IMG/VR virus record: IMGVR_UViG_2740892523_000006
Strand: one strand, 5' to 3'
DNA length: 55,003 nucleotides
Origin: a virus
Taxonomy: Duplodnaviria > Heunggongvirae > Uroviricota > Caudoviricetes
Position 1 is the stretch's first letter. The number at the start of each line of letters is the position of its first letter. Position numbers and translations under genes: made by a program. Below, in pieces: positions 459-55,003 of the stretch. The notes beneath the pieces were generated by a model, which was not told the origin of the DNA, did not search any database, and was given only the letters and a program-made list of their open reading frames with translations.

Positions 459-467
459 CAGAGCCTC

Positions 468-2161: not shown

Positions 2162-2240
2162 CGATTTTTTTGATACCGATTTGCATTTCATTTGATACCG
2201 CTGAAAAACGCCGATACGCAACTTATTTGATACTAAATCG
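2162..2240. repeat. Mu-like right-end terminal repeats (putative transposase binding sites)
   Basis: TTTGATACCG at 2169-2178 and 2191-2200, related TTTGATACTA at ~2226; closely spaced as for Mu R1-R3. Confidence 0.55.
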
Positions 2241-2279
2241 GCGCTTTTCTTTTGAGTTTTAGAATGAGTTTTTAAGCGC

Positions 2280-3017
2280 TCATTCACTCTCTTTCAAACC
2301 AGTTTTAACTGTTTGTGGTTTTGGGTAAGGCTGGACTTTGAATAGCTTTGTGTTGAGGCGTTTTCTGGCCCTCTTGTTCAGAAACCGGATGTAACGAAAC
2401 TGTCGGAACTTATGAACACTGGCTCTGTCAATATTAGCCCTCAGATGTTCACCTCGTTGTCCGCCTCGTTTAATGGCATTCCTGCAAATCTCGTGATACC
2501 ACTCGCCATCAAGTTCATAGAATATTGATTCATGGCTGCCTACATAATCAAAATTGCTTGCCTGATACACGACACCAAGACAGCCACAACGCTCATCTGC
2601 AAACGACTGAACCCACTGTACCTGCGGATAAAGCTGCCTGATTAGCTTGAGCGCGTAACTGATTGCCCTTGATTCGGAGTTTCTCGGCATACAGTCATGC
2701 AGCCATAGCCGGTTAAGCTCCATATATTCTCGGTTCTGCGTACCCGTTACGACGCGTGCACCACTGTTTGGGTTAAGGGCGTAACCCCATTGCATTACGC
2801 CAACAAGTTCCCGTTCTGAAAATATGCCCAGATGAAGGTAGGAGTTATTTACGAAACGGTGGCTGTAATGTTTATTGACGATGACCAGTCTGGCCAGCCA
2901 GCAACTTATTGTCTCAACCCGCAACTCACGGGAGCCATAACCAACGATATTGTCGTTATAGCGAATAAGTTCAGGCGTGCTGATGATTCGGGATGTGACT
3001 TGCTTTCTGTTCCCCAC
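2280..3017 (-). CDS. mom: Mom-like DNA modification protein
   Basis: 245-aa ORF immediately downstream of and overlapping a Com-like zinc-finger gene, ~120 bp from prophage right end, as in Mu; sequence identity to Mom not verified. Confidence 0.6.
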
Positions 3018-3216
3018 GACAGGATTTCCTTGTGTATGTGGGGTGCTCTGTGGCGCTCGGAGATGTGATTTGATTGAGGGTTTTACAGCGCGGACATTTT
3101 ACTTCCAGATAACTGAAACTGGCCCGTGCCAGTAGCTTATTGCAGTGTCGGCACCGTATGTTTCGATACATGACCGCATAACCTCCTGCTTTGTTGTTGA
3201 TGCCTTTCTCATGCAA
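2971..3216 (-). CDS. com: Com-like zinc-finger translational regulator of mom
   Basis: [10 protein letters not shown]...EVKCPRCKT...EHPT matches recalled Mu Com CxxC...CxxC pattern; TTG start at 3216 or ATG at 3171; overlaps mom start. Confidence 0.7.
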
Positions 3217-3218
3217 TC

Positions 3219-3235
3219 GATCGACAAAAACGATC
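3219..3235. promoter_or_regulatory. Paired GATC (Dam) sites upstream of com/mom
   Basis: GATC at 3219-3222 and 3232-3235 just upstream of com start; Mu mom promoter is controlled by Dam methylation of clustered GATC sites. Confidence 0.4.
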
Positions 3236-3582
3236 GATTCGATTTGTTTAATTGATACAACAAATAGATTGAAAAGTCATCAACAATGATTCAGGGAGGT
3301 GATTATTTACTTAAAGAAAACGAAGAGTTAGGTGGTGAAAACGATCATAAAATGATCATTTTATTGACTTTTTATACAGTGAAGGTAGGATCACGCGTAT
3401 ATGTAGTATGTTTCAAATCAACAGGATACTACATAAAAGTGAAACCCAGCATAGCTGGAACTATGCTGGGTCAATCTGTAAAAACTTGCATCAATGCTTT
3501 ACTTCGAGCTCGTGGCGTATCCTATGATATTCCCCGGTCTCCTGTAAAGCAGAGATGCATAAAAAGGAGATCTTTATCATGG

Positions 3583-4400: not shown

Positions 4401-6438
4401 ATTCTGTTACCGCTTTTTTCACTTCCACCACAATGCTGTCAATCAGCACCGGGTAAGTTGCATTTTTTGTGATATCCGTTACGCGGAGTTTGTCCACCGG
4501 GAAAGTTCCTACTGGTGACTGCGTCAGGGTAAACGCGGCACCATCCTGACCATCAATAACCGGAATAACCTGAAGGCTGTTATTTCCTGCAAAACGGAAG
4601 GCCAGCGTATGCCATTCATTATCAAATGCACCAAAGGTTCCCAGTTTCTGGTTATTTGTTGCCACTTTTGCATTGTGGTACATCACATTCAGGTCTTTTG
4701 CGTCTGTCTGGATGTAGAACGATGCCAGCAGATTATTCCCTGCATCCCCTGTCAGGGTGACACCCTGCGGCAGAGAGGAAACCGGCCAGTAAAGCCCCAT
4801 GACATACTGGTTTGCCACCAGGTCGCCAGGTACTTTAAAACGACAACTGATTAAACCACCATTTTTCAGCAGTTCAGCACCAGTACCGGCATCATGATCC
4901 AGATACCAAGATGATTTACCTGTTTCCTTGGTCAGTTTCATTGCCTTACCACCTGTGCCTCCTGCATCACTGATAATTTCAGCTTTACCGCCAGCCGGCT
5001 CCCAGCCCTGGGCTTTCAGATTTCCTTCTGACTCACTGACACGATAAGACAGCAGTGTTGTGGTTACTGCTTCAGTTTCTGAAGGTGACGGCACTGGTGC
5101 TTCAGTTTCAGAAGATGGAACATCGGCTTTTACTGTGGTTCGCCCCGCATGAGTCAGAACTGCCGTGGCCAGACGGTCGGAAATAATCCCACGACGTGCC
5201 CATGAACTGAAATGGCTGGCCCGGTCCGCAGATGTCCAGGTGGCGGCACTGTTACGCCACGTTGAGCCGTAATAACCAATGGATTCAATATCCGGGTCTT
5301 CTGCCGGATTGTTGGTGGGTACATTCGCGTCATTTTCATCTGTCATTAATGGAACGAAATGAATGTTTTTATCTGTTTTGTTTTTGTAGCCGCCATAGAT
5401 TGCCTGGTATGCCGGTTCATTTTTCTGTTTCCAGAAATACGTGGTATCGCCACAAATCCACGGAACGCCAGCAGCACTGCCACCGGTACACTGTTCCGCC
5501 TGTTCAGCCAGGTCTGCGCGGAATTTTTCCACCATCGCCAGAAACAGCGCGGAATGCTCCGTCGGCTTCGCATCAATATCAAACTCGCCCTGCATCCACA
5601 CCACAGCAAGCAGGCGGTTTTTCGGGTTCTTCGCCAGTGCCGCTTTTGTCCGGCTGATTAAGTCCTTATACAGCGGCTTATCCACACCCCAGCGGGCTGA
5701 GTCCTCTGAAGCACCCGTGCTGTCACTGTACGTGCCGTCAGCACCCGCCGTGAATGCAGAACCACCACGGCAGCAGGGAACCAGCAGAATCCCCGCATCT
5801 GCCGGAATAAACGGCAGCAGTTTTTTGGCAATGTGAAGCCCCTGACCCACGGTGCCATATTGCCCTTTAGCCACATCCGCTTTCGGGTGATTTTTTCCAC
5901 TCATATCCTGCACATCATGCAGACAGTGGTCGGCCAGAATGATGTCGTTATACTGACAGGCTTTACCTCCCGGCGTGACTGTACTGCGACGGGCTAACTG
6001 CATAATACGCGGTTCGGGGCGGTCATATGTCTCCGGCAGTGGCAGACCTTCACCGTAAGCCATACCGTTTGACTGACCAGCAAGAACCACCACGTAATAC
6101 CAGGAAGGGGAGCTGGAAGCAGTTTCATTTCCTGACGGACGGGTATGTGTTTCAGCATTATCCCAGTCTGACGGTTCAGCAGTACCGGCAACATCAGCAC
6201 TTAACGGAATGACCGCACCAATACCCGCTCCGGTAATTTCCACACTCGGATCACCGGATACTGGCCTTACCCACAGGCAATCCCGTGTATTAAAACTGAT
6301 GAGACAGTCAGCAAATGTCATTCCTCCTTTTGTTTCGGCCGGAGGAAAGGGAGCCTCAAGAAATGCCGCTGTACCACCGGAAACTTTAACAGTAAAGTTT
6401 CCGGGCATTGATGATAGTTGAACCCATTTGGACGTCAT
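4399..6438 (-). CDS. SASA/SGNH-family carbohydrate O-acetylesterase with C-terminal lectin-like domain (NanS-p-like cargo gene)
   Basis: 679 aa; VVVLAGQSNGMAYGEG matches the GQSN esterase motif; SETEAPVPSPSETEAV linker; beta-rich C-terminal ~230 aa; no signal peptide. Confidence 0.65.
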   Translation of the reverse strand: MTSKWVQLSSMPGNFTVKVSGGTAAFLEAPFPPAETKGGMTFADCLISFNTRDCLWVRPVSGDPSVEITGAGIGAVIPLSADVAGTAEPSDWDNAETHTRPSGNETASSSPSWYYVVVLAGQSNGMAYGEGLPLPETYDRPEPRIMQLARRSTVTPGGKACQYNDIILADHCLHDVQDMSGKNHPKADVAKGQYGTVGQGLHIAKKLLPFIPADAGILLVPCCRGGSAFTAGADGTYSDSTGASEDSARWGVDKPLYKDLISRTKAALAKNPKNRLLAVVWMQGEFDIDAKPTEHSALFLAMVEKFRADLAEQAEQCTGGSAAGVPWICGDTTYFWKQKNEPAYQAIYGGYKNKTDKNIHFVPLMTDENDANVPTNNPAEDPDIESIGYYGSTWRNSAATWTSADRASHFSSWARRGIISDRLATAVLTHAGRTTVKADVPSSETEAPVPSPSETEAVTTTLLSYRVSESEGNLKAQGWEPAGGKAEIISDAGGTGGKAMKLTKETGKSSWYLDHDAGTGAELLKNGGLISCRFKVPGDLVANQYVMGLYWPVSSLPQGVTLTGDAGNNLLASFYIQTDAKDLNVMYHNAKVATNNQKLGTFGAFDNEWHTLAFRFAGNNSLQVIPVIDGQDGAAFTLTQSPVGTFPVDKLRVTDITKNATYPVLIDSIVVEVKKAVTE

Positions 6439-8158: not shown

Positions 8159-9070
8159 TTACACTGAACTTACCGTTCTCCAGGCATTATTAATATAAAT
8201 CTGAACCGGGCGATAATAGACCCCACCGATATTGTCCGCAGACCGGGAGCCGGTTTCCTGCACGTTAATTCCGGAAAGCATACAACCGGAAGGTGCGCTG
8301 TAATTCCATGACATTTCATTGCCTCCGGGTGAATGATAGCTCTGTGCTCCAAGCTGAACATTCTGTACATACCGGCCATCTGCGGTTGACTGCGTCATTC
8401 CTGACGTGATGTTGATATCCAGCGTTCCGTCAAAAGGAACACCATTAATATTTCTTGGGGTGGCGAGTCTGTTTGCTGCCACGGCGGTTCCACCCGATGG
8501 CAGGGCATCAGCAGCCTTATTTACCGTTTCCCGTAAACCGACGTTATCGATAAAAGCGCCTTTATCCGGAATGTCTGCGCCGTTCTGCTCCCTGCGCAGG
8601 TAACGGTTATCACCTTCGCTTTTGCTGTAAACATCCAGATTATTACGGGCGGTTCCCGCATTCTCCAGGTCGGCAAGGTTCTGATCCTTCGCCAGAGCAT
8701 TAACGTCACCGGGACCAAGACTGTTTTTTGTGGCAAGCGCCCCAAGACCAAGATAACCACGGGCAAGACGCTGGGCTTCCGCACCGGCATCAGCAATTTC
8801 TTTCAGGTTGTTTTTCCGGGAAAAGGCATTCGCAGCGATAATGGCTTTAATGGACAGCGTAAGCTGGTTTAACTGCGCCTTATCCGGCTGAATACTGGCT
8901 TCAGCCAGAATATTCAGCAGTTCGGCCTGGAGAATATTCAGCCAGTCCTGACCAATCCAGCTGATACCTTTTTGTCCGTCACCTTCGGTAAACCAGGTGG
9001 TGGTATTACTCTGCGCCGGTGCCAGCGCAGGCATATTCGCCACGCCGGAATTATTATCAACATGGAACAT
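8159..9070 (-). CDS. Tail fibre protein (Mu S-like; constant N-part plus invertible C-terminal part Sv)
   Basis: ATG at 9070 overlaps upstream stop (TAATG); C-terminal 127 aa lie within invertible segment and are homologous to Sv-prime cassette. Confidence 0.75.
   Translation of the reverse strand: MFHVDNNSGVANMPALAPAQSNTTTWFTEGDGQKGISWIGQDWLNILQAELLNILAEASIQPDKAQLNQLTLSIKAIIAANAFSRKNNLKEIADAGAEAQRLARGYLGLGALATKNSLGPGDVNALAKDQNLADLENAGTARNNLDVYSKSEGDNRYLRREQNGADIPDKGAFIDNVGLRETVNKAADALPSGGTAVAANRLATPRNINGVPFDGTLDINITSGMTQSTADGRYVQNVQLGAQSYHSPGGNEMSWNYSAPSGCMLSGINVQETGSRSADNIGGVYYRPVQIYINNAWRTVSSV
8522..8550. repeat. gix-like inversion crossover site inside tail fibre gene
   Basis: GTTTCCCGTAAACCGACGTT at 8526-8545, inverted repeat of 7161-7180; coincides with codons ~193-200 (DNVGLRET) where the two cassettes begin to align. 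Confidence 0.7.
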
Positions 9071-9630
9071 TAAATATTCTCCTCTTCGTGACTGTTTGCA
9101 TACACGTAAATAAACGTCTGCCATGCAGGCTTATAACGGTTCAGAATACATTCCAGCGCACCGCCTTCATAAATACGCAGCGGCGTGAGAATATCATCCA
9201 GCACATTCATATTCCGGTAGCCGGTTTCACTGTTAATCGTGACAATACTGACCCACTGTGAATCCGGTGATGGCTGAATATCTATTTCATAACCAAACTC
9301 TGCCGCAAACCGGATATAAAATTCACGGTTAAGAGAGGGTTTCATCCGGTATTTATTCCCGGCATAACGCTGACGCTCCTGAATGGTTGCGCCGGTCATA
9401 TCACATTCCGGTAACCCCAGATAACGCTCCCAGTCTTCCAGCAGCAGACGGGATGAATCAGGAAAACGTTCTGCCAGCATCTGGTTACCGGTCCAGGAAA
9501 CACGCTCCGTGGAATGACTGAGGCCCAGGCACAAAGCCGCAAGAACGGATGACGGCCGCTTATCCCATGCCAGCCCGTCAGGCAGCAACTGCAACAGGGC
9601 GCGCTGATGCGGGGTCAGGGTTACAGCCAT
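9070..9630 (-). CDS. Tail/baseplate protein (Mu gp48 position)
   Basis: 186 aa between baseplate J-like gene and tail fibre; assigned by synteny. Confidence 0.55.
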   Translation of the reverse strand: MAVTLTPHQRALLQLLPDGLAWDKRPSSVLAALCLGLSHSTERVSWTGNQMLAERFPDSSRLLLEDWERYLGLPECDMTGATIQERQRYAGNKYRMKPSLNREFYIRFAAEFGYEIDIQPSPDSQWVSIVTINSETGYRNMNVLDDILTPLRIYEGGALECILNRYKPAWQTFIYVYANSHEEENI

Positions 9631-11140: not shown

Positions 11141-11747
11141 TCTCTGGTCCTCCCGTTTTGCTGCCTTCACCGTTATCGTGATGCACATGACCTGAATAGG
11201 TGATCCCGGCAATAACCGCTTCGGACATCGTGAACGTCCCCTGTGATCTTCCGGTGCCGTCAATGGACACATTGCCTTTGACATGCAGGTTCTTATCCAC
11301 TGTGACATTACCGGTAAAGTGAGCCTCCGGTGTATCCACCTGAACACCTTCATCGGCGTAAATCTCCAGCGTCTTACAGGTCACAATGATCCGGCCGTTC
11401 TTTGTCAGACGTATGCGGTGCCCCTCATGGTGATACACGCCGGTATCTCCGGCGGTAAGTCCGGTCGGGCGACTGCGGCGGTCTTCCACCACAAGCACCA
11501 CGGCCTGATCCCGTTGTCCGCCAGCACAGGCCAGAAAAACTTCCGCACCAGGCAGGGGGACGCTGATTTGCCCGTACTGCTGGGGGCGTTCAACGTCATC
11601 AAAGGTTTCACCATCCATACCGGTGATTTGCACATTCTGGATTTTCAGCGTGTCCGTTGTGCCGGTCAGTACACCACGCCCGAACAGCAGACGAACACCC
11701 CGCATCACGGGGGCCAGAAGGCGGCTGATGACTTCGTCATTCATCAT
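11133..11747 (-). CDS. Baseplate assembly/spike protein (Mu gp45 position)
   Basis: 204 aa in baseplate module; synteny. Confidence 0.55.
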   Translation of the reverse strand: MMNDEVISRLLAPVMRGVRLLFGRGVLTGTTDTLKIQNVQITGMDGETFDDVERPQQYGQISVPLPGAEVFLACAGGQRDQAVVLVVEDRRSRPTGLTAGDTGVYHHEGHRIRLTKNGRIIVTCKTLEIYADEGVQVDTPEAHFTGNVTVDKNLHVKGNVSIDGTGRSQGTFTMSEAVIAGITYSGHVHHDNGEGSKTGGPENG

Positions 11748-41093: not shown

Positions 41094-42848
41094 CCTGGTT
41101 ACATGATGTCGTGCTGCTTCCGTTTCATTCATCCGGTTCAGTGCAGCATTTTCAGCATTACGGCGTTTCTGTTGCTCCTGATAATTCCGCTCTGCCTGCT
41201 CTTTTGCATCCTGCAAATCCTTCTGGCGTTTTTTCTCCTGAAGATCGTTAAGACGCTGCTGATCGTATTCAACCTGAGAAGATGATGCCGTCCAGGGGAG
41301 TCTTTTCGCCCGCGACACTTTCTCCTGTAAAGCGGCAATCTGTTCATCCAGCGAGTCTTCACGACCAATATTCATGGCCGCATCCCAGAAACGACTCCAC
41401 AAATCAGACAGATACTTCAGCGTACTGCCAAGCGCATTGAGGTTATTATCAATATCCGCAGTACGCCGACCGGTTTCCTCTGCCAGTGCAGACATGGCTA
41501 TCCGTGCAGCATCACTGGACCGCCCCTGCTCCCCAAGGACGCGTATCTGCTCAAGCTGAGTGGCAGTAAGAAAATGCAGCTCATTGTCCAGAGCCTTCGC
41601 GGCATTTACAGGATCATCCTTCAGCCGCTTAAACTGATTTATGGTATCGCTGACCGACTGGCCAACCGATCGCTCCATCTGTGCGGCAGCTCTCGCCACC
41701 ATACCGATATCGTTTCCACGAAATGCACCACTCCCCACCACCTGAGCCAGCGCACCGGCTGCAGCATGTTGCGTGATACCATTCCCGGAAATAGCACGAC
41801 TGAGCGTCCACAGCTGCCCGGCAGTGACTCCGGCATAATGCCCCGTCAGCGACAGCTGGCGGTTAAATTCTTCCCCCTCCTTCTGACCGTCATACCAGGC
41901 TTTACCCAGACCATAGACAGCCGCGGCAATACCGCCAATAACCGCTCCTGGCATCATGCCTTTCGGTGACATCAGTGTGTCTATCCACCCGGCACGGTTA
42001 GCCAGCGTTATTCCGGATCCCCTCAGCGCACCTAAATTGCCGCGGGCCAGTTCACCTATCAGAACGCCTATCTCCTGACGGGCTGCTGCACTTTTCAGAC
42101 CCAGCGAATGCGTGGCTTTTCCTGCCTGCTCCATTTTGCGGATATACACTTCTGCAGCACTGCTTACCCCCAGCTGGGCAGCCTTAGCACGAAGCAACTC
42201 AGAAGAAGAAAGATTCTGGCGGGTTGCCTGCTCTTTAAGCTGACGGATAAACGCCACTTTCTGTCGGGTAGCCTCTTCCTCAGCCTGTGTAAGAACACGG
42301 GTTTTCGCCGTAACCTCAGAAATCAGCGCCAGATAATCCTGCTGACCAATCCCGCCACTGTTTCTGGCCTGTCGGATCTGTTGCTGAATACGCTGTAATT
42401 CCTGCAGCCCCGCACCGGCCTGTTTCACACTGTCAATCTGACGATAAAACGCAGCAGCCGCTTTATCCTGAGCCTCCGCCAGAGCCATGGCCTGCGCCTG
42501 TTCCTCGCGCATTTTCTGGCTCAGTGCCTCCATACGCTGGCGGGTTTGCTCCACCTCGCGGGCCATGCGTTCATGAGCCTGTGCGCTCTTCTCCACCGTC
42601 TGCGCATGGACGGATGCGGCTGTTGCAGCCGAAGAAGCCGCCTGCATTGTCTGCCGGGCGGCCTGAGTCTGACGCTCCATAAAACGCTGCATACGGGCAG
42701 AAGACCGTTCTGCATCGCTGGCTGCACCATTCAGAAGGTTTTTGATACGGGGAATTTCATTTTTAAACTCTGCCGCATCAATCCCCAAATCAATGACCAG
42801 GTTGGCTATCTGGTCCATAACGCACACCTCCGGAAATACCTTCCCCAA
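41091..42848 (-). pseudogene. H: Lambdoid tape measure protein H, N-terminal fragment, truncated at Mu-like insertion
   Basis: 585 aa; N-terminus MDQIANLVIDLGIDAAEFK resembles recalled lambda gpH start; stop codon TGA 41091-41093 coincides with first bases of Mu-like end. Confidence 0.75.
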
Positions 42849-43119
42849 GATGCATCAGTTCTTCGTCCGTTCGCTCCGGTATCCCGTTCTCTTCCGGTAA
42901 AAGGCTGAAATCAGCCACCGCAGCATCACTGCTACCGGACACCATTCTCACGATCAATGCCTTCAGCGAGGCAAACTGCGCATCCATCCACACATCACTG
43001 AAGCTCTGCATCCGGAAATAATCGCCCCACTCACCAAGCTCAGTGGCCGACATTTCCGACAGCATCCGCCGCCAGTCTGCCCGCCGGAACTCCCGGGCAA
43101 GCCGCATGACAAACTGCAT
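42790..43119 (-). CDS. T: Tail assembly chaperone T-frame (expressed as G-T fusion by -1 frameshift)
   Basis: ORF in -1 frame relative to G, open across G stop; overlaps H start; lambda G/GT arrangement. Confidence 0.65.
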   Translation of the reverse strand: MQFVMRLAREFRRADWRRMLSEMSATELGEWGDYFRMQSFSDVWMDAQFASLKALIVRMVSGSSDAAVADFSLLPEENGIPERTDEELMHLGEGISGGVRYGPDSQPGH

Positions 43120-43127
43120 TTCCCGCG

Positions 43128-43517
43128 TCAGGACTTTTCCGGCGTCAGCACCTCATGCTCCAAATCCCCGGCATTCTCAATGGCTCCCATACCGCTCAGC
43201 GACAGAACCATCTCCGCCCCCGCTCCCAGGGCATCATACGACCATGTTGTAATAACGGATGCGCAAAGCGTCTCAACATCCTGAGACTGTTCCGCATTCC
43301 ACAGTGAGCGGGAAACCAGCCAAGCATTGATATCCATCCCCATCCGCAGAAAAGCAATCTGTCGTTCAGCCTCCGGCAGTTCTCCCTCTTCGGCATCAAA
43401 CTTTGCCGTTCGCTGCTGAACAAACGCCAGATATTCAATTCTCTGCAGCCCGGACAGCTCACTGAGCACCACGGACTGCTTTTCATAATTAAACGTGCCC
43501 TGTTTCAGAAACATCAT
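43128..43517 (-). CDS. G: Tail assembly chaperone G
   Basis: MMFLKQGTFNYEKQSVVLSELSGLQRIEYLA resembles recalled lambda gpG start. Confidence 0.75.
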   Translation of the reverse strand: MMFLKQGTFNYEKQSVVLSELSGLQRIEYLAFVQQRTAKFDAEEGELPEAERQIAFLRMGMDINAWLVSRSLWNAEQSQDVETLCASVITTWSYDALGAGAEMVLSLSGMGAIENAGDLEHEVLTPEKS

Positions 43518-43574
43518 GTTCTCCACCTGCAAAAAAGCCCCGGATAACCGGGGCAAATGATGAGTATCGTCCTG

Positions 43575-44318
43575 TTAACCTGCAGCGCTGACAGTCACCG
43601 CAGCCACAGCCACAAAATTCCCGTCAGCGGTCATGCCCACAATGCTGACGCTGCCCTGCTTCACGCCTTTCACCGTGGCCACAAGTCCGTTCAGGGTCAC
43701 AGTGGCTGTCTGTGGATCTGTCGAATGCACACTGATCGCTTTGTCACTGGCTCCGTCAGGTTTTACTGTAAAGGTCAGCGTGGTGGTTGCTCCCACATTG
43801 ACACTGGCGGATGCCGGTGCCACCGTCAGCCCGGTAACGCCCACAGTTTCAGTGCCCTCCTCTGCCAGATATGGACGCCCCACACCGCTGATTTTCACTG
43901 TGCGGGTCATCACGTCTTTTGAGGCAATGGTTTTACCCAGTGAGCTCAGCCAGCCGCGGAAAACATCAACAGTGCCGTTGGGATATTTGATACGAAACGC
44001 GCAGACTTCACCGGAGTCGAACAACTGAACCAGTTTTTTCTGCCCGCTGTCACCCGGACGCCAGGCCAGCGTCGCCGAAGTATCACCAACGGATTTCTGC
44101 CCCTGGGTTGTCGTTTTCCAGTCTGCATCTTCATCATCGAGATAAGTGTCATCTTCTGCATCAGCGGTCATTTCGCCAGGTTGCAGATCCTTCACCATCG
44201 CAAGACGCAGCCAGTCAGTGTCCGACAAAGGGTTCGCAAACGCATCGCCGTTGCCGGTATACATCCAGAACGTCGTCCCCGCACCTTTCGTCTTTGCCAG
44301 TGGATTTGGCGTGGTCAT
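43575..44318 (-). CDS. V: Major tail protein V
   Basis: From MTTPNPLAKTKGAGTTFWMY (246 aa, as lambda gpV); Ig-like C-terminal region. Confidence 0.85.
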   Translation of the reverse strand: MTTPNPLAKTKGAGTTFWMYTGNGDAFANPLSDTDWLRLAMVKDLQPGEMTADAEDDTYLDDEDADWKTTTQGQKSVGDTSATLAWRPGDSGQKKLVQLFDSGEVCAFRIKYPNGTVDVFRGWLSSLGKTIASKDVMTRTVKISGVGRPYLAEEGTETVGVTGLTVAPASASVNVGATTTLTFTVKPDGASDKAISVHSTDPQTATVTLNGLVATVKGVKQGSVSIVGMTADGNFVAVAAVTVSAAG

Positions 44319-44328
44319 TACCACCTCC

Positions 44329-44742
44329 TTAATTCGTGTACGTGATCTGGTACGTGATTTCCGCCATCGCCCAGGTGGCCATCTCATTATCACGTTGATA
44401 GTTAAAACCGAGTGGGATCAGGGTGTCGATGAGTCCGGAAAGTGCCGATACATCATTCAGGGCCGGGAAAATGGTGCTCTCCATCCACATATCCAGCTCT
44501 GAATCCGGTGCCTGTGCCCGGATGAAGACAGCAATATGCAGAACAGCCTGCCAGTCATCTTCATCCGTCATTTTTCCGGTGTACTGAGCATCACTCAGCC
44601 ACACCGCCACGGCAGGCAGTTCCTGCGCATCAACAAATGCCGGAAGCCCGTCAAAAAACGTGGCGCTGTCTCCACACTGTTCCCGAAGGCGTGCCAGTAC
44701 GACCTGGCGGATTTGTGTATGTCGGTTCATCGGGTCAGCCAT
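44329..44742 (-). CDS. U: Tail terminator protein U
   Basis: ATFFDGLPAFVD...AVAVWLSDAQYTG...PDSELDMWMES parallels recalled lambda gpU. Confidence 0.8.
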   Translation of the reverse strand: MADPMNRHTQIRQVVLARLREQCGDSATFFDGLPAFVDAQELPAVAVWLSDAQYTGKMTDEDDWQAVLHIAVFIRAQAPDSELDMWMESTIFPALNDVSALSGLIDTLIPLGFNYQRDNEMATWAMAEITYQITYTN

Positions 44743-45305
44743 AACCTCAGTTGTTGTTTCAGTGCATACCCCAGCTGTTTCGGCATTTCCGCAGCAATGA
44801 TGCGGTCGCGGGCATCTTCAAATGCCTGTGTCAGCGGTCCGGACAGCGGGATTTTCACCACATCAATGGGGTAACGATTTTTGCCATCAATACGCCGCAT
44901 CACATGCCAGCGACCATTCGCCAGTTGCTGAATAAACGCATCCCGGAAAAGATATTTACCCACCTTCAGCACACTGCCACGGTACTGCAGTTTTCCACCA
45001 CGCTGGGCCAGTCTGACCCGGGCTGTCCCCAGCTTAATGGCGGGCAGATTGCCCCGGTTAACGCGGATCCTGGCCGTCATTTTTCCTGACGGACTGGCTT
45101 TAAACACCCGGACACGCTGACGAACCAGTTTCAGGGGGATCCCTTTCACCTGGTTATCTCCCGCAACGGTATTCCCGGCAACCTGCCGGGTGGCAACCGA
45201 GCCCGCTTTCTGTGCCACACGGTTTATCGCCCATGCGCTGGCCTGTGGCACCATACGGGTATCAAGGCTGTTCAGATTGCGGATGGCATTCTCAAGCCCC
45301 TTCAT
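44727..45305 (-). CDS. Z: Tail completion protein Z
   Basis: 192 aa (same as lambda gpZ), position between FII-like and U. Confidence 0.7.
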   Translation of the reverse strand: MKGLENAIRNLNSLDTRMVPQASAWAINRVAQKAGSVATRQVAGNTVAGDNQVKGIPLKLVRQRVRVFKASPSGKMTARIRVNRGNLPAIKLGTARVRLAQRGGKLQYRGSVLKVGKYLFRDAFIQQLANGRWHVMRRIDGKNRYPIDVVKIPLSGPLTQAFEDARDRIIAAEMPKQLGYALKQQLRLWLTR

Positions 45306-45316
45306 CCCACACCTCT

Positions 45317-45592
45317 TTACTCAATAAAGATCATTGGCTTACCGTTAAAGCGTTCATGCCGTGTGACCGTCCATTGTTGTCCGTCATAAACAACGCGATC
45401 CCCGCGCCGTGGGCGGTATCCCGAAGAAAACACCACCAGAGAGACCGCAGGTCCGGACAGAGCATTCAGCTCTGCCAGTGTTTCTCCCGGGATCACAGTC
45501 ATATCGACATCATTAATCGAGGCTGTCTTTCCCATCTTTCTGACCGTGATAGCATCCATACGCGCTGCCAGCCGGGAAAAGGGATCAGACAT
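45317..45592 (-). CDS. Head-tail joining protein (FII-like)
   Basis: 91 aa; position upstream of Z; weak resemblance to lambda FII. Confidence 0.5.
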   Translation of the reverse strand: MSDPFSRLAARMDAITVRKMGKTASINDVDMTVIPGETLAELNALSGPAVSLVVFSSGYRPRRGDRVVYDGQQWTVTRHERFNGKPMIFIE

Positions 45593-45908
45593 TGAGTTTT
45601 ACCGGCACTTCTTCTGCACTGGTTCCGGCATCTGCCCAGACAACCCCGACCAGCGGATCAGAGCCGCTGTTAGTCAGCTGAACTTTTCCTGACTTCAGAT
45701 AAACCTTCTTACCCGTTTTCATGTCATCCGTTTTCAGCTTAGGCAGCATAAACACACCTTCGGTCATGCCGTCGCCTGTTTCACCCTGTGGAATATCGGT
45801 CAGCGCCACCGCAAAAACATCGCCCACCTGCACCAGATCTCCGCTGCTGATGGCTGCACTGGCAACAATCGCCACCGTTTTTCCTTCTTCTACAAAATTC
45901 TTTGCCAT
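45585..45908 (-). CDS. Putative head protein (decoration/packaging-like)
   Basis: ~107 aa from MAKNFVEEGK; between capsid and FII-like gene. Confidence 0.4.
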   Translation of the reverse strand: MAKNFVEEGKTVAIVASAAISSGDLVQVGDVFAVALTDIPQGETGDGMTEGVFMLPKLKTDDMKTGKKVYLKSGKVQLTNSGSDPLVGVVWADAGTSAEEVPVKLNV

Positions 45909-45994
45909 AACTGTCTCCGCACAGCCCCGTTCAGGGGCTGATTTCAGGTACAAAAAAAGCCCTTACGGGCCATCAGAGTTGTTGTCTGCGACGT

Positions 45995-47953
45995 TTACGC
46001 CGTACATTTCACCAGACCGCGGTGATCAACTGGCGCGACACCGGCGTCAATACGCACTTTCGTTGTCACGCCATCCACACTGAAGCCCTCCATCTGATCA
46101 ATATATGGCGTATCCACACCGTTGAGATAAGCCACTTCAATCGTATCGGAGCCTTTTGACGCAGCCAGGTAGAAGGTGGTCTGGCTGTTATCATCAAGAC
46201 GAGGCTCTGCAATAACGGTCGCAAAATCTTTCACCGGGTTAATAATACCGGCGTTAATGTCAGCCCCCTTGACACTTGAGGAGCGAATGACCTGGTTAGC
46301 AACAGACTCCATCGCCGTCGGTACCAGTACGAACGCAGGACGAATATTCAGATGACGCTCCCCCTCTTTCTGAACGCGCATCAACTGGCGGGCTTTATCC
46401 AGCGATGCCACGTCCATTGCAGCGCTCTCCAGTACGTTTGCATGTTTCGCTTTATCGAACAGACTTACATTATCTGTGGAGATTTTCGGGTTAGACGTCA
46501 GAATGGCATAAACCAGATCGGCAATAGTGGATTTCGCCGCACGGCCCAGTTTCATCGGGACATCGGTCAGCATATTCAGATCATCATTGATAATGGCCTG
46601 ACGGGTGATACTGAACAGCTCGCCATAGGTCGCCAGTGCAATAGTGGCCTGTTTATCTCCGGTGGTGACGTATTTATATTCCGCCCCTTCACGCACCTGA
46701 CGCAGAGCACTGAAGCCCCCCATACCCACACGATGGGCAATTTTAAAATCAGACAACTGACCTTTCCGCGTCCACTGTTCATAGGTTTCAGGGGCATCTT
46801 CCCAGCCCTGCAGAATGGCTTTGTTCGCAACATCCAGCAGAATATTACCGAAGTCAGACGTACTGTGTGTGAACGCCGCACCGACCATCTGCATCGGGTT
46901 ATAACTGGAAACCCCAATACCCCGTTCAGTCAGTGACATACGGGCATATTCACGCAGGGTCATCCCGTTGTAGACATTATCACGTTCGGTTTTTTCAAAT
47001 CCGGCACGCGCCATCAGCGCCTGGCGGATCCCATCCCCCACAAAATTACCGTTTCCGGCATAAATATGAGCCGGGGTATTTTTATTAGATGGCGTGGACT
47101 CGCGCCCCATCTCGTTCAACAGCTTTTCGCGGGCCTGCTCCAGCGAACATTCAGGATCGGCAAGACACTGAGCCTGCAGCGTCTGATAACGCCCGCCAAA
47201 CATGGCAAACAGATCATTAATACCGTTTACACGCGCTTTTTGCTCTGCCAGTACCTGCGCACGGATACTGTTTTCATCCACCACAGGTGCTGCTGCCTGC
47301 ACTGGCGTCCGGGAGGCTGCAGGTCCATCATCCTGTACGCGTGGAGCACTGTTGCGTGGCGGAGTAATCATGTTTCGAATGGATTCCGGCATCTTTTTAA
47401 ATTCCTCTGTACGTTTTGACTGAATACATGCCATTGCCTTAACGGCTGGCGTCACCTGATCAGCAAATCCATGTGCCAGACATTCGGCACCGGACATCCA
47501 GGTCTCATCCGCCAGCATGGCAGCAATTTCATCGGTGGTTTTCCCGGTTTTCTGTGCATAAGCGGGTAACAGAACCGCCTCAACTTTATCGAGCAGGTCG
47601 GCATAGGTGCGCATGTCCTCCGCATCACCGCCCGTAAAGCCAAATGGTTTATGAATCATCATGAAGGAGTTTTCCGGCATAATGACCGGTTTTCCCACCA
47701 TCGCAATGACCGACGCCATTGACGCCGCCACACCGTCGACATAAACGGTAATGGACGCACCATGTGTTTTCAGTGCATTAAAAATGGCGATGCCTTCAAA
47801 GACATCGCCACCCGGTGAATTGATATTGAGATTAATGTGGGTGATATCGCCCAGTGCATTCAGATCACTGATAAACTGCTTCGCTGTAACACCCCAGAAA
47901 CCAATCTCGTCATAAATATAAATATCCGCGTCACTCTGGTGACCAGCCTGCAT
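45995..47953 (-). CDS. Prohead protease (ClpP/S49-like) fused to major capsid protein
   Basis: Protease signature INSPGGDVFEGIAIFNAL...IAASMASVIAM in N-part, long C-terminal capsid-like region; likely start MQAGHQSDADIYIYDEIG at 47953. Confidence 0.7.
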   Translation of the reverse strand: MQAGHQSDADIYIYDEIGFWGVTAKQFISDLNALGDITHINLNINSPGGDVFEGIAIFNALKTHGASITVYVDGVAASMASVIAMVGKPVIMPENSFMMIHKPFGFTGGDAEDMRTYADLLDKVEAVLLPAYAQKTGKTTDEIAAMLADETWMSGAECLAHGFADQVTPAVKAMACIQSKRTEEFKKMPESIRNMITPPRNSAPRVQDDGPAASRTPVQAAAPVVDENSIRAQVLAEQKARVNGINDLFAMFGGRYQTLQAQCLADPECSLEQAREKLLNEMGRESTPSNKNTPAHIYAGNGNFVGDGIRQALMARAGFEKTERDNVYNGMTLREYARMSLTERGIGVSSYNPMQMVGAAFTHSTSDFGNILLDVANKAILQGWEDAPETYEQWTRKGQLSDFKIAHRVGMGGFSALRQVREGAEYKYVTTGDKQATIALATYGELFSITRQAIINDDLNMLTDVPMKLGRAAKSTIADLVYAILTSNPKISTDNVSLFDKAKHANVLESAAMDVASLDKARQLMRVQKEGERHLNIRPAFVLVPTAMESVANQVIRSSSVKGADINAGIINPVKDFATVIAEPRLDDNSQTTFYLAASKGSDTIEVAYLNGVDTPYIDQMEGFSVDGVTTKVRIDAGVAPVDHRGLVKCTA

Positions 47954-47966
47954 CCTGAACCAGGAA

Positions 47967-49476
47967 TTATTCTTCGGACTGGTCGTCGGTGTGCTGCGGC
48001 TCCTGTCGTTTCGTTGCGGCACTGCTGCCTCCTTTATCACTGGCCGGATCGGTATCAAATACCAGATCCAGCTTGCGGTTTTCATCAATTTCGGCCTTGC
48101 GCCGACGTTTGACATCATCCGGATTACGACCACCTGCACGTACCCAGTCTGATTCTGTCGCTGCTCCACCACGAATCTGAATTTTCCAGGCCTCAGCCTC
48201 CTTAACAGGGTCAATCCACGGCATCACCGGTCCGGAATACACCGCGGTATACAGTGAAGAACGGTCAAGATCGCGGGGTAGCCTGATAACACCGGATGCC
48301 ACAGCCTGTTTCAGCCAGGCACGATACATCGGGCGGGTGACGGCACCAATAAACCAGTCCTGCAGGATCAGGTAGCCATCAGTGGATTCAACCAGCTCCT
48401 GACGCTGGGCGCTGTAAGTGCCGTTATAGTTGCGCGCTGTACTGGAAAAAATTCAGACGACTGCCCGCCGCCACGGCACGCAACTGACCATTACGAAAAG
48501 TTTCAAGGTTAGGATTGGGGCGATCCGACTTCACCATTCCGATTTCTTCGCCGGGTTTCAGATCGTCGTAAATAATGCCTGGCTGAATGGTAAGCTCGCG
48601 TTCCTTATCCTTGCTGCCATTACCATCCGGTTCATAGCTCTGCCCATCGCCTTTCCGGATGTACATCCCCAGAGCAGCGGCGATCCTTGCTGCAGTCAGC
48701 TCAGAATCCTCATACTCTTTCAGGGCACTGAGGCGGATCAGCACACCGGACAACAAAGACGTCCCGCGCATCTGGTGCAGACGGCGAACAAATTTAAGAT
48801 GCAGCATTCGCTCTGCATCCACTTCTTTGGTTTCCATCTGCCGTCCGGATACGGGACGGCTTTTATACACCAGATATTTTTCGGGACGCCCCCAGTCATC
48901 AACAAACACGCCCTGATTCAGCCTGTTGCTCTCATCACTGGTCATGGGAATAAAGTCTGGCTCGAGCGCCTCCAGCCAGAAATGAACACCGGCAGAAGGC
49001 GTCAGGCTGTTTATGCGCCCGGAAACCATCTGGGCAAACACCTCACCATCGCGCAGCCAGGTACGCAGCATCAGACGTTCCAGCATCGGACGGGTAAACT
49101 GCCCGGTGACTTCCGGACTGACAGACCATTCACTCCATCGGGTGCGTATCTCCGCTGCCAGATCACGGGCAATGGCCCCATTGCGTAATACCGGATGTGG
49201 CTCGACAATAATCCCGTTTTTCCCCACCACCCGTTCTTCCAGCTTGTCAAATACACCAATAACCAGATCGTGGTTGTTATCAAGGTAACGGGCCTGCTCA
49301 CGTAACGACACGGCCCCGTACTGGCTTAACTGGTCGGCAGTTCGGTTTTCCCGCCGGGCTTTGTGTGTCCGCGTCGTTTTTACGGCCTCATAAGCCTGGA
49401 TCACCGCACGGGAACGCAGCCTTGCCGCTTTCCATCCTGGTGAAAAAACGCCAATCACATCATCAAGAATTGCCAT
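47967..49476 (-). pseudogene. Portal protein, apparently frameshifted at a T6 run (~48446-48451)
   Basis: 374-aa ORF from ATG 49476 ends at 48424; a second frame stays open from 48452 to 47967 (120-aa ORF plus upstream extension); combined ~500 aa. Confidence 0.5.
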
Positions 49477-49694
49477 CAGAACCTCGCCAGCCGGTACCCG
49501 GGATGCCCCCGTCGTCGTGTAATCAGAGCCGCAAGGCGGCGCTCCCACTCCTGCCGTCCCTGCCGGATCTCAGATAAGTTTTCCATGGTCATCTGCTGAC
49601 CATTAAAGGTGACGGATTTTCCGTCCAGCACCGCCATTTCAGCTTCCGTATAACGCTGAATCATGGCTTCGATATCATTCTGGTTCATAACCAT
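49476..49694 (-). CDS. W: Head-tail joining protein W-like
   Basis: 72 aa, ...ITRRRGHPGYRL resembles lambda gpW C-terminus; between terminase and portal. Confidence 0.6.
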   Translation of the reverse strand: MVMNQNDIEAMIQRYTEAEMAVLDGKSVTFNGQQMTMENLSEIRQGRQEWERRLAALITRRRGHPGYRLARF

Positions 49695-51787
49695 CCTCCG
49701 GAAGTCAGCCAGGGGTTAACATCGTCAGTTACTGTTTTCTTCCGTTTTTGTTTTTTAACAGGCGTGGATACCGGTTCCGGTGAGGGTGACGGTTCGGTAC
49801 TGTCCGGGACACTCTCCAGCCAGGTTTCCCGGCTCGCCCACCCCGGTGCATCCGGCCAGCGGATCTTTTCGTATCCATGCAGAATGACCAGAGCCTCGGC
49901 ATACACCATCAGGTCAAAAGCTTCGTTGGCACCGCGACCCGGCTTACTCCATTTCCCGTCACTACTCCGCTCTTCATACGTCAGTTCGTCGTAAAACCAG
50001 CTCCCCAGCCAGTCAGGGAAATGCACATAGCCGGGACCTGGAGAGTCACGCCATAACGCGTTATTCACCCGGTCTTTCAGTGCATCCGTCTGAAGAAGCC
50101 AGAGCGGCACATCACCTGCGGCCTGCGCCCGTCGGCCCGTTCGTCCGGTGTTATCAGGGAATGTACGGGTGATCAGTTTTGCGCGCCGGATGCTGTCGCC
50201 CTTAAACAGGTAAATACGTTTACCAAGGCCATCACGACGGCAACGACGCCAGAATTTATAGGCATTATCAGTGACCCCGTCTTCACCGCCGGAGTCCACC
50301 GCCATTGCCATCAGTCGCATTTGTTGAGAAGGATCGGAGGCCAGCGGCCAGCTTTTATGAAAAACATCCGTCAGCAGGACATCCCAGTCTTCCGGATAGC
50401 TGGCCGGATCAATTCGCTGGCTCTCACCGTCGCTGTCACCGCGCAATGACTGCGTGATGTTGTAACGATCAATAATCCAGCGTTCGCCACGGCTGCCATA
50501 GCCCGTTACCTGAACCACAAAACGGCGATGACGTCCCGCCTGCACATCCACTGTCGCCACAAGGAAATTAACGCCATCCGGCACACTGCTGGAAGGAACT
50601 GGCTCTGCCCGCTGCTCAAGCAGTTCACTTTTTCGTTGCTCCATGCTGGCGCGGGGAAGATAAGGTAATCCCCAGTCGGTATTGATAACCGTCTTGAGTG
50701 TTTCTTCACTTCCGGTTGTCTCGTATTCCTGTTCTGCAGTAAGCAGTTTGTAAACGAGTTGCGAGAGTGTCTGGTAAGCAGCTGCCGGACCCTCCATCCA
50801 GAATGACGCAATACGTGAGCGTCGGGGATCACCATAACGACTACCATCCGCATTGATGGATTCACCATCCCGCAACCAGACCCCACGTCCGTTCAGCTCA
50901 CGTTTTTGTTCAGGCATAATCCGTCCTGAACAGGAAGGACACTGAATATAAGCCGCCTCACTTGCCAGCACGGGATCGGCAATATCACGGAAACCAGCAA
51001 CCACATCGCCGCAGGGCTGAAAATACTCACCACAGTGTGGACAGGGCCAGTACCAGCGACGGCGATCGCCACGGTTATAGAGCGACAGTATCCCCGTGGT
51101 TGGTGGAGCCTCATGCGGTGAAGTCCGTCGCCATTTCACATCCTTCACATCCCTGCCGGGGGAACTCTCCACCAGCGTCATACCACTGGACATAAATGTG
51201 GTGGTACGTTTTGAGGCAAGAGAGAAGGCATCCCCCTCGCCATCAATATCTTCCGGAAAACGGTCATAATCCGTCAGCGCCACGCATTTATAATCTGATG
51301 AGGACATGATATTGACTGACGGCCAGCCGATTTTCAGGTAGTTGCCAGCAAGGAATGTTCTGTCATAAACGTTGTTGTCATTTTTGTTCGGACTCAGGCG
51401 ACTGACCACTTCCGGGCTGACGCGAAACGTTCTGGCGAGTCGTTTTTTGGAGTGTTCGCGGGCTTTTTCCTCCGTCATCTGAATGATCAGCATATCCGCA
51501 GGATCGCAAATCACGTTGTAAATCACCCAGCCGTCAATCAGGCCGATAGTCTTGCCGGTTCGTGCCGGGCCAACAAATATCACTGCGTCGTATTCACGCG
51601 AGGCCAGGCAGTTCATCGGCTCAATAACATACGGTGCCACCAGCGGATCCCACGGGACTGAGTTCCCGGCCCCCATGGGCACCCGCATATACTGAGCAAC
51701 GGCATCAGCAACCCGCATTCGTCTCGGTGCGCGAAGGATATAACCTGAATCGGTTCGTGCTGCCTTTGCGGTTTCCTGATTCAGCAT
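49685..51787 (-). CDS. A: Terminase large subunit (lambda gpA family)
   Basis: 700 aa; Walker A FVGPARTGKT; Cys cluster WPCPHCGEY...CPSCSG; follows Nu1-like gene. Confidence 0.85.
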   Translation of the reverse strand: MLNQETAKAARTDSGYILRAPRRMRVADAVAQYMRVPMGAGNSVPWDPLVAPYVIEPMNCLASREYDAVIFVGPARTGKTIGLIDGWVIYNVICDPADMLIIQMTEEKAREHSKKRLARTFRVSPEVVSRLSPNKNDNNVYDRTFLAGNYLKIGWPSVNIMSSSDYKCVALTDYDRFPEDIDGEGDAFSLASKRTTTFMSSGMTLVESSPGRDVKDVKWRRTSPHEAPPTTGILSLYNRGDRRRWYWPCPHCGEYFQPCGDVVAGFRDIADPVLASEAAYIQCPSCSGRIMPEQKRELNGRGVWLRDGESINADGSRYGDPRRSRIASFWMEGPAAAYQTLSQLVYKLLTAEQEYETTGSEETLKTVINTDWGLPYLPRASMEQRKSELLEQRAEPVPSSSVPDGVNFLVATVDVQAGRHRRFVVQVTGYGSRGERWIIDRYNITQSLRGDSDGESQRIDPASYPEDWDVLLTDVFHKSWPLASDPSQQMRLMAMAVDSGGEDGVTDNAYKFWRRCRRDGLGKRIYLFKGDSIRRAKLITRTFPDNTGRTGRRAQAAGDVPLWLLQTDALKDRVNNALWRDSPGPGYVHFPDWLGSWFYDELTYEERSSDGKWSKPGRGANEAFDLMVYAEALVILHGYEKIRWPDAPGWASRETWLESVPDSTEPSPSPEPVSTPVKKQKRKKTVTDDVNPWLTSGGWL

Positions 51788-52278
51788 TACTCCTCCTGCT
51801 GTAATTCCTCCTCATCATCCGCACCTGCTTCGGTCACCCGCAGGGCTATCTGATCGCGCAGATCATCAATAATGGACTGAACACGGCTCACAGCGGCAGG
51901 CTGCAGACCACAGTCACGTTCCAGAATATCCGGTAATGTCTCCAGCACCTGCACGACCGCTTTTGCCCAGATGGCAAACTCCCGTCTGACATCACTGGCC
52001 GGAATGAGTTGTGCCGTTTCCTGTTCGAACTTAAGACGCTCACGTTCAGACTGATACCAGGCTTTGCGTTCATGTGGATCCATTTCGCCCTCAGCAACCG
52101 GCGGTGGTAACCCCATAAATTCAGTCAGAATATCGGTCAACCGGTATAGCTTGAGTTTGTCATGTCCACCAGCGGGACGAATGTTTTTCAGTCTTGCCAC
52201 GACAGTCTGGCGGTGCAGACCAGATAAAGCCGCCAGTTGATTAATATTCAGCACCAGGTTTTTCAACTCATGATCCAT
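51787..52278 (-). CDS. Terminase small subunit (Nu1-like)
   Basis: 163 aa; N-terminal HTH LNINQLAALSGLHRQTV; ~190 bp downstream of cos-like site. Confidence 0.7.
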   Translation of the reverse strand: MDHELKNLVLNINQLAALSGLHRQTVVARLKNIRPAGGHDKLKLYRLTDILTEFMGLPPPVAEGEMDPHERKAWYQSERERLKFEQETAQLIPASDVRREFAIWAKAVVQVLETLPDILERDCGLQPAAVSRVQSIIDDLRDQIALRVTEAGADDEEELQQEE

Positions 52279-52439
52279 ATTTCCTCCGGAGAGCTTTAAA
52301 CATGCATCGTGCGAACAACTTTAAGAAAACGCGTTCGATGTCGAACAAAAAACACTCAATTCGACATACAAAAAACAAATAACCATTAATAATCAATAAG
52401 ATGCAAAGATGATGGTGGCCGATAAAAATGCAAAAACTA

Positions 52440-52470
52440 GCCTTTTTCCGCGACGCTCCCGCCCCGTGGC
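52440..52470. other. Candidate cohesive-end site (cosN-like)
   Basis: Minus strand reads CACGGGGCGGGAGCGTCGCGG, resembling recalled lambda ACGGGGCGGCGACCTCGCGGG. Confidence 0.45.
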
Positions 52471-52893
52471 AGGCCACCCCACCGGGAGGAGCCGTCAGCC
52501 TGAAAGCCATGACGAACGTCTGATACAGCCCTTGCATGAATGGCATCGGGATAATCCAGAAAGGAATAGCATCGACCCACAAGAATCTGTGTGAGTGTCC
52601 TGTTTCTTCCACCCCCGCACAGGACTGGCGAGCATGAGGGACAAACCCGCGAATCATTAGCGCGGTAAAAACCCGGTGTGCATCGTTTTTGATTATTCCC
52701 GCACACTCGCGCAGAAGGAGTTCCCCGTCGGGCTACGGTCATGGTTAATGCGGGAATACAGCGACGATACAGCGCATGATGTGTCAGGCTTGAATACCTT
52801 TATCCGTTAAAAGGGATATCAGTTAAGTTATCCCGTGTAGGGTATAAGCCATTATCAAAGCCACTCTGTAGGGAGTGGCTTTTGTAATGGCAA

Positions 52894-52918
52894 TAAAAAA
52901 GCCCCGCGAATGCGAGGC
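52894..52918 (-). terminator. Candidate intrinsic terminator downstream of Rz
   Basis: Minus-strand RNA CCUCGC AUUC GCGGGG followed by CUUUUUUAUU. Confidence 0.4.
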
Positions 52919-53092
52919 TAAATCCAGGTATTTTTAATGACTGGCTCTTATCTCAACGCAGCCCCTTACCGCGCGCCAGATGCTCAATATCAAGCATCAG
53001 CAATGAGATGTTTAACCATGATTCACTCCAGAAGTGAGCACCACCCTGTCTACAGAGCCAGATGTGAAGGATGATGAGTAAAATTATCGCTA

Positions 53093-53572
53093 TCATCGAA
53101 GGCATTGCGTCCTGATGTATTCCTGAAGCGTTCTCAGTGCTGTTTGGTCGCGGATAATTCCGTCCCGGATACCGAGAACGTTTCGTCCAGCAACTGGAGA
53201 GAGTTCGACGGTGGCATCATTGCCCATGCCGGAGGCGCTGGAGGTTTCGTCTGAGGATGGCACAGGGCATTTTCCTTTGACGAACACCCGACCACCATTA
53301 TCAAGCTTGCGCCGAAGAGCATCATTTTTAGCTTTCGCATCAGCTAACTCCTTCGTGTATTTAGCATCGAGTGCATCAGCAGCACGCTGGCGCTGCTGCA
53401 TGTCAGTAATGGTGGCGGTCGCCTGCTTCAGCTCACTGACTTTTTTATCACGCTGTTCTTTATAGGCGATGGCGTTATCACGGTAATGATTAACCGCCCA
53501 TGACTGGCAGACGATGATGCAGATAACCAGAGCGGAGATAATCGCGGTTACTCTGCTCATTGTTGCCCCCAC
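53093..53572 (-). CDS. Rz: Inner-membrane spanin Rz
   Basis: [29 protein letters not shown] near-identical to recalled lambda Rz N-terminus. Confidence 0.85.
53134..53340 (-). CDS. Rz1: Outer-membrane spanin lipoprotein Rz1 (embedded in Rz)
   Basis: [21 protein letters not shown] lipobox, PPAPPAW proline stretch as in lambda Rz1; nested in Rz in another frame. Confidence 0.8.
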
Positions 53573-54054
53573 AAACAGACTTCACGCTCAATCTCGCGGC
53601 GAGTCATCAGCCCTTTCCATTGCTTACCGCCAGCGTATGTCCAGCGCCGTAGCTGATCACATGCGCCTTTGATATCACCCTGGTTTATTTTGCGAAGAAG
53701 CGTCGATGTTCTGAAATTACCAGCGCCCACGTTGTAAACGAACGAGTAAAGAGCGCCGCGCGTTGTTTCCGGTATATCGACTTTGATGTACGGGTTAATT
53801 TGTCTGGCGACCGTGGCAAGGTCTTTATTCAGGAGGGCTTTGCATTCTGCTTCGGTATACGTTTTACCGGGAATGATGTCTTTTCCGGTGTGTCCGTGAC
53901 ATACAGTCCATACGCCAACGATATCTTCGTATGGTATGTAGCTGACACCTTCCAGGCCATCGTCACCACTCGGACCAGTGATGAGCACAGACGCTATGGC
54001 AGCAGCCCCACCACCAATAGCAGCAGCAACAGCCTTGCGTAATGATGGCGACAT
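53557..54054 (-). CDS. SAR endolysin (phage 21 R-like lysozyme)
   Basis: 165 aa; N-terminal SAR segment [18 protein letters not shown] then lysozyme domain; closely resembles recalled R21. Confidence 0.85.
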
Positions 54055-54260
54055 TATTCACCTCTCGCAGCCTTACGCTTATCTTCTTTAATCTTGAAAT
54101 AAAGGTTTGTCAGATACGTCAGCAAGCCAAACACCAAGCTACCCAATACGCCTATTGCCACCCACTGGGATGGGGAGACTTTGTCCAGCAACTGCAGTAG
54201 CCAGTATCCCGTCCCCACCGCTGACGTGGTGTATGACACACCTGTTGTTATTTTTTCCAT
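54054..54260 (-). CDS. Pinholin (phage 21 S-like)
   Basis: From [12 protein letters not shown]... 68 aa, two TM helices, resembles recalled S21/EssD; ORF track start at 54314 is probably an upstream extension. Confidence 0.75.
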
Positions 54261-54890
54261 CTGGTACATACCCCGTCTCCCGTTATCCGGAAGCTGACAA
54301 CAATAAAAAGCCACCAGTTAATTCCTGATGGCCCTGATGCATAAACGTCATAATACCTGACTGTTATGATTGACAATAATGATAATGTTTATATAGAAAG
54401 GTTCCCGATGTGTGTTACATATCATTTCTCCACGGGGAATATCCCCACGCCAGCGCAGACTCTTTTACCCGTTCTCTTCTGCGCTGGCTCTTTTTTATTA
54501 TGCTGCTGCATTTACCTCTGGCACCATGCTTTCTATCTCAACACAATACGTGGTACTTCTTGTAACCAATATCATAACGATTAATCGACATAGAATTTCT
54601 CCCGTGTACAGGAACAGAGTTAAAAAGCCGGAACCGGAATCAAATCACAGGATGACCATCTGCCAGTGGCAGGTCATAAAAAAAAGGCCGCGCCATGCGC
54701 AGCCAGAACTCACAAGGAAAATGATAGAAGGAAATAACATTAGTGATGTACGCATGGCGCCTCCCGCTAAGTTCTGCAATGATCAAACAGAACTCGCTAC
54801 GTGCCCTTAAAACTCGATCATTTAGCCCCTCCAAGGAGGATTCACCATGCGGTTGATTTTTTAATAAACAGTAAACAAAAAAGTCAAGAA

Positions 54891-55003
54891 TTATTCATTC
54901 TGTTCTTTCATCATCGGCCACAGCAATACCACAATGCCGCAGACCAGAGCGCCATCAGTCAGTACCAACATTATCCTGCTGGTGAAATCCATCATCACCA
55001 TCA
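54891..55003 (-). CDS. C-terminal end of a small hypothetical membrane protein (gene begins beyond window end)
   Basis: Minus strand translates ...MMDFTSRIMLVLTDGALVCGIVVLLWPMMKEQNE then stop at 54891-54893. Confidence 0.3.
   Translation of the reverse strand, partial: MVMMDFTSRIMLVLTDGALVCGIVVLLWPMMKEQNE

Follow-up and report, generated by a model that had tools for sequence, protein, structure and literature searches.

The DNA analysed here, a stretch of 55,003 nucleotides (the window), is the CP-933K (EDL933)/Sp3 (Sakai) prophage of Escherichia coli O157:H7. Its 1701-bp portal region is 100% identical to EDL933 and to about 30 other O157:H7 genomes among the matches listed (TW14359, EC4115 and Xuzhou21 among them), and identity to EDL933 is likewise 100% over the whole 13.9-kb late region of the window. 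In EDL933 the match falls within a prophage that lies next to ybhC and has nleB2, nleC and nleH1-1 as cargo. The features of the head-gene region and of the insertion that interrupts the tail genes are as follows.

49685–51787, minus strand: terminase large subunit, 700 aa, intact.
49476–49688, minus strand: small gpW-like head–tail adaptor gene, upstream of the portal gene, its stop overlapping the portal ATG (from the annotation of the identical EDL933 stretch, mEp460 and cdtI, and the list of open reading frames).
48424–49476, minus strand: 5′ fragment of the portal pseudogene, 350 codons plus TAA, with its ATG at 49476 and TAA at 48426–48424 (translation).
48446–48452, minus strand: the lesion, A + T6 as against G + T5 in all intact relatives, a net gain of 1 nt.
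47967–48452, minus strand, +1 frame: 3′ fragment of the portal pseudogene, 161 codons, ending at TAA 47969–47967.
45995–48022, minus strand: ClpP-like prohead protease/major capsid fusion, intact in the window, with an alternative start at ATG 47953.
41104–42818 and 797–2151, minus strand: the two halves of the tape-measure gene, flanking the Mu-like prophage.
2152–41103, strand not given: Mu-like prophage of 38,952 bp, interrupting the lambdoid prophage's tape-measure gene.

The split gene lies where a portal gene should be, the order TerL, gpW-like gene, portal, protease/MCP being the same in mEp460 and cdtI. It had been proposed from the sequence that the second portal frame overlaps the start of the protease–capsid gene as a portal C-terminus would, and this is true of the PGAP start at 48022, which lies 56 nt inside the portal gene, but not of the ATG used in phage records (47953), which comes 14 nt after the portal stop. 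PGAP and the phage records are inconsistent with each other in where they start the protease/capsid gene. A tRNA scan of the window found none.

Both portal frames, from ATG 49476 to 48424 and from 48452 to 47967, are present as originally predicted. On translation the first consists of native residues 1–341 followed by an out-of-frame tail, N-F-F-Q-Y-S-A-Q-L. In the +1 frame there is a TGA at 48455–48453, after which the frame is open from 48452 to TAA 47969–47967, and its head has no start codon. The two open frames share 29 nt, and the coding-strand TTTTTT lies inside the shared stretch. The alignment to intact portals and the one-base repair that had been suggested as checks both gave the result expected of a single broken gene: in BLASTP against intact 502-aa portals the 5′ fragment matches residues 1–343 and the 3′ fragment residues 343–502 (in the intact portal of O55:H7 CB9615 these are 100% identical to the 3′ fragment), and deletion of one T in silico gives a 1509-nt ORF encoding 502 aa. 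The product of 374 aa that was first attributed to the upstream piece fits a start at GTG 49548, whereas translation from ATG 49476 yields 350 aa; intact homologues begin at the equivalent of ATG 49476, unlike the upstream GTG model. It is nevertheless the longer form that PGAP annotates (EDL933_RS04325, 48424–49548, WP_010904538.1, 374 aa), together with a 3′ piece reduced to 48302–47967 (EDL933_RS33080, WP_127446149.1, 111 aa), and in RefSeq/PGAP both are labelled as ordinary ‘phage portal protein’ CDSs with no pseudogene call. The contrary possibility, a full-length product of 374 aa followed by a distinct conserved gene, is contradicted by the finding that the second ORF is the C-terminal third of the portal. 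As the fragments tile the intact portal and the second ORF by itself matches no Pfam family, the two pieces are one split gene, and WP_010904538.1 and WP_127446149.1 would best be handled as one pseudogene.

Intact relatives of this gene are plentiful. Sixteen phage records are 98.3–99.2% identical over the whole query of about 1.7 kb, mEp460, cdtI, PhiR47_1, Ayreon and phi458 among them, and in every phage or genome match at 98–99% identity the matching span is 1700 bp, against 1701 bp for the query. Among about 1,700 E. coli genomes with the uninterrupted gene, those sampled down the ranking likewise had the 1700-bp span and a single annotated portal CDS. In mEp460, cdtI, PhiR47_1, 99-3311 and O55:H7 CB9615 there is in each case one portal gene of 1509 nt and 502 aa. 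DNA alignments across the lesion, which took in mEp460, cdtI, PhiR47_1, E. coli 99-3311, O55:H7 CB9615 and VT1-Sakai, show one gap and one adjacent substitution at 48451–48452 relative to the intact relatives, which read CTGAG-TTTTTCC where the window reads CTGAATTTTTTCC. It takes two edits to reach the window's sequence, G>A at 48452 and the gain of a T within 48446–48451, or else a single G>AT delins; no lone insertion converts the ancestral sequence into that of the window. These alignments indicate that the lesion is a compound of G>A and +T and no clean homopolymer slip. Because all intact relatives have G + T5 the ancestral run is taken to be T5, and the original placing of the frame switch at a run of six T (plus-strand A6 at 48446–48451) was thus right as to location, but the run was itself made by the mutation and no existing T6 was expanded. 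The T6 would have been uninformative by itself, since A/T runs of at least six are common (62 in the window), and it is the alignment to intact genes that locates the lesion.

As to how the change arose, the ancestral ...CTG AGT TTT TCC... (L-S-F-S) would have become ...CTG AAT TTT TTC C..., the simplest route being either a G>A substitution and then replication slippage from T5 to T6, with the order of these steps inferred, or a single G>AT event. A search of 5,426 complete E. coli genomes for the in-frame one-step form with A + T5, CTGAATTTTTCC, yielded not a single exact hit. Neither an intermediate nor a revertant allele thus came to light there, and the T tract shows no sign of phase variability. 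Nowhere else in the window does the derived 11- to 15-mer recur as a potential donor, even with one mismatch allowed, and a quasi-palindrome check gave essentially unchanged predicted local hairpin energies (−24.0 versus −24.1 kcal/mol). Gene conversion from the portal gene of a paralogous O157 prophage was considered and rejected: the VT1-Sakai paralogue, which is 76% identical, reads CTGAGTTTTTCC, and so keeps the ancestral G + T5 form.

A homopolymer is where a single-base indel is the typical platform error, and the original prediction had allowed for a sequencing error, with the real gene intact. The exact 61-mer across the lesion was, however, found in 287 complete E. coli genomes, the work of many laboratories and platforms (sampled carriers with a label are O157:H7), and an identical allele in so many genomes rules this reading out. 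The change is in addition a substitution plus an insertion and not a pure change of length, and an independent assessment of the Sakai genome by Asadulghani et al. (2009; PMC2669165) classed the Sp3 portal as defective. An error of sequencing or assembly is in our view virtually inconceivable. More than 1,000 genomes carry a related portal without the exact frameshift 61-mer, and among the phage and E. coli genome matches the same split was not found outside the O157:H7 clone.

The orthologous intact copy is that of O55:H7 CB9615, which over the shared 13.9-kb late region is 99.914% identical to the window (11 mismatches) and in which the sole gap is the portal lesion; within the portal gene itself the two differ at three positions, of which two are the lesion. 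As CB9615 is intact and the allele is present in O157:H7, the event can be dated to the O157:H7 branch after the split from CB9615. On this comparison of sequences the frameshift is recent, having followed divergence from the O55:H7 CB9615 lineage, and the recency of the event would account for a 3′ fragment that is so far unchanged. The 100% identity of this fragment would be expected under selection, but equally so after a short time (11 substitutions in 13.9 kb). The A + T6 allele, being missing from O55:H7 CB9615, is a clean lineage marker.

The effect of the lesion on the protein was judged from the Pfam family and from phage lambda gpB. The restored 502-aa protein matches Pfam PF05136 (Phage_portal_2) with E = 7e-81 over profile positions 3–354 of 354. 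The 5′ fragment alone matches with E = 8e-74 and breaks off at position 324 of 354; the 3′ fragment alone has no Pfam match. In a phmmer search against the PDB, query residues 305–440 align to lambda gpB 332–474, ungapped around the break, so that portal residue 342 falls opposite gpB residue ~369, where the stem meets the wing, immediately ahead of the tunnel loop, and the second ORF is homologous to gpB residues 370–474. The domains of gpB are the wing (24–249 and 368–452), stem (250–279 and 343–367), clip (280–342) and crown (453–511), and its Gln379 touches DNA (PMC10721106). No single uninterrupted frame runs through wing, stem, clip and crown in the window, as the frame breaks after residue 341. 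Translation would leave the portal frame after Leu341 and stop nine codons on. By this alignment the 350-aa product is predicted to retain the clip, the two helices of the stem and the first segment of the wing, whose second segment would be missing along with the tunnel loop and the crown; because these are removed, we infer loss of portal function. The 350-aa product is not expected to build a working dodecameric DNA channel, and the 161 codons of the 3′ fragment would be dead sequence. The portal of the window is a pseudogene of the PF05136 family and no working member of it.

The slippage-prone sequence that had been put forward as a third option would matter if a full-length portal were still made, either through +1 slippage of tRNA-Phe on UUU_U or through omission by RNA polymerase of one U of U6, leaving the gene leaky. 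Recoding would have to be in the +1 direction, and in AAU UUU UUC C the P-site tRNA-Phe may re-pair to an overlapping UUU and give the near-native N-F-S-S-T...; A/T runs are moreover known slippage sites (PMC1088944). Against this, the two-frame layout is not conserved: the 16 phages, the 1,000-plus genomes and the O55:H7 orthologue are single-frame, which makes the layout newly arisen damage and no signal kept by selection. Inspection of the sequence revealed no in-frame stop or rare codon for the A-site and no Shine–Dalgarno-like element just upstream. In most bacterial genomes, selection against slippage shows at about 9 nt (PMC1088944), a length that T6/U6 does not reach, while the heptamer U_UUU_UUC would favour −1, a shift to the third frame, in which a stop soon follows. 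Programmed −1 frameshifting on U_UUU_UUC was itself rejected: it takes a +1 shift to reach the downstream ORF, and the −1 frame soon runs into a stop codon. A full-length product would in any case be useless to an element that is unable to excise, replicate or package (PMC2669165). There is thus nothing in favour of slippage as a functional mechanism, the homologues being single-frame with T5, and we consider recoding very unlikely.

It might also be supposed that the fragments are functional as they stand, either as a two-piece portal or with the N-terminal piece acting as a decoy that hinders assembly of related phages or sibling prophages. The allele is uniformly kept across the 287 genomes, the intact Q antiterminator and late genes around it mean that a fragment could be expressed, and O157 prophages are known to interact (PMC2669165). 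However, the recent clonal origin of O157:H7 accounts for the retention, and no phage or genome outside the clone has such a split. The 3′ piece is without a start at the break, and the first candidates (48329 and 48302) skip 40–50 conserved residues; no sign of selection is seen among the few substitutions relative to O55:H7 CB9615. Any function for the separate fragments therefore appears extremely improbable. The broader proposition that the split gene is not inert, because low-level +1 slippage on U6 yields some full-length portal or because a crown-less 350-aa subunit is dominant-negative, we regard as highly improbable. If true, a non-inert split portal would affect assembly in phages of the mEp460/cdtI type or in the sibling prophages that make up the O157 ‘defective prophage pool’.

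What remains is decay, and the portal gene is one of several damaged parts of this element. The annotation of EDL933 CP-933K gives int as frameshifted; its bet is a truncated form that has lost the N-terminus, and the cI, O and P region is absent; the Q antiterminator and the late genes around the portal are intact. Asadulghani et al. (2009; PMC2669165) recorded for Sp3 that the repressor and antirepressor are absent, integration is defective, replication is absent and recombination is defective (their Table 1) and that there is no circularisation, replication or packaging (their Table 2). The int and bet lesions of EDL933, together with an antiterminator remnant, lie outside the window, at 4722–5788, 8879–9550 and 11201–11272 of the EDL933 CP-933K locus. 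An lpxR lipid A deacylase gene lies amid the nin and Q genes of the same prophage.

The source strain of the window has a further lesion. The flanks 1–2151 and 41104–55003 are contiguous in EDL933, and between them is the Mu-like prophage, in which mom lies at the end marked by 2152 and the Mu transposase close to 41103. Both junctions (2151/2152 and 41103/41104) carry a copy of the duplicated TGAT, and TTTGATACCG motifs lie 17 nt from each terminus. Mu-like prophages that are ~99% identical occur at other sites in other O157:H7 genomes, but the junction of this one with the tape-measure gene was found in 0 of 5,426 complete E. coli genomes. In the source strain the insertion inactivates the host prophage a second time, independently of the portal frameshift.

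The split portal is, then, very probably due to a genuine, fixed frameshift that has inactivated the lambda-family portal gene in the cryptic prophage CP-933K/Sp3. It has the marks of a frameshift pseudogene: a net gain of 1 nt at 48451–48452, fragments that tile the intact protein and further lesions in the same element. Of the three origins first offered for it, decay in a defective prophage is the one borne out, by intact relatives in one frame and by the other lesions of the element. The defect as such is already known and is ordinary gene decay: the Sp3 portal is given as ‘D’ (defective) in Table 1 of Asadulghani et al. (2009; PMC2669165), the main text of which does not spell out the nucleotide change. 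A literature search for ‘CP-933K’ with ‘portal’ gave no match. The frameshift confirms one of several lesions that make Sp3/CP-933K cryptic and by itself matters little to an element that would be retained for its T3SS effector cargo, nleB2, nleC and nleH1-1.

Among known systems, CP-933K/Sp3 is the same element with the same allele, neighbouring genes and nle effector cargo as the window; it differs in that the prophage of the window also holds the 39-kb Mu-like prophage in its tape-measure gene. Lambda gpB (PDB 8K38) belongs to the same Pfam family as the portal of the window and its C-terminal part can be aligned, but it is a distant relative only (E about 1e-4 by phmmer) and is a single intact chain of 533 aa. 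The phages mEp460, cdtI, PhiR47_1, Ayreon and phi458, whose portals are of the lambda family (PF05136), have the gene order of the window, but where they have one ORF of 1509 nt and G + T5 the window has two ORFs and A + T6. The orthologous prophage of O55:H7 CB9615 (NC_013941.1, 984627–1024686) has the same cargo as the window and an intact portal, whereas a stop codon interrupts its own protease/capsid fusion and both bet and ral have frameshifts; it still has cI, cII, O and P, of which the EDL933 copy is without cI, O and P. As the lesions of the two prophages differ, the CB9615 and O157:H7 copies have decayed independently.
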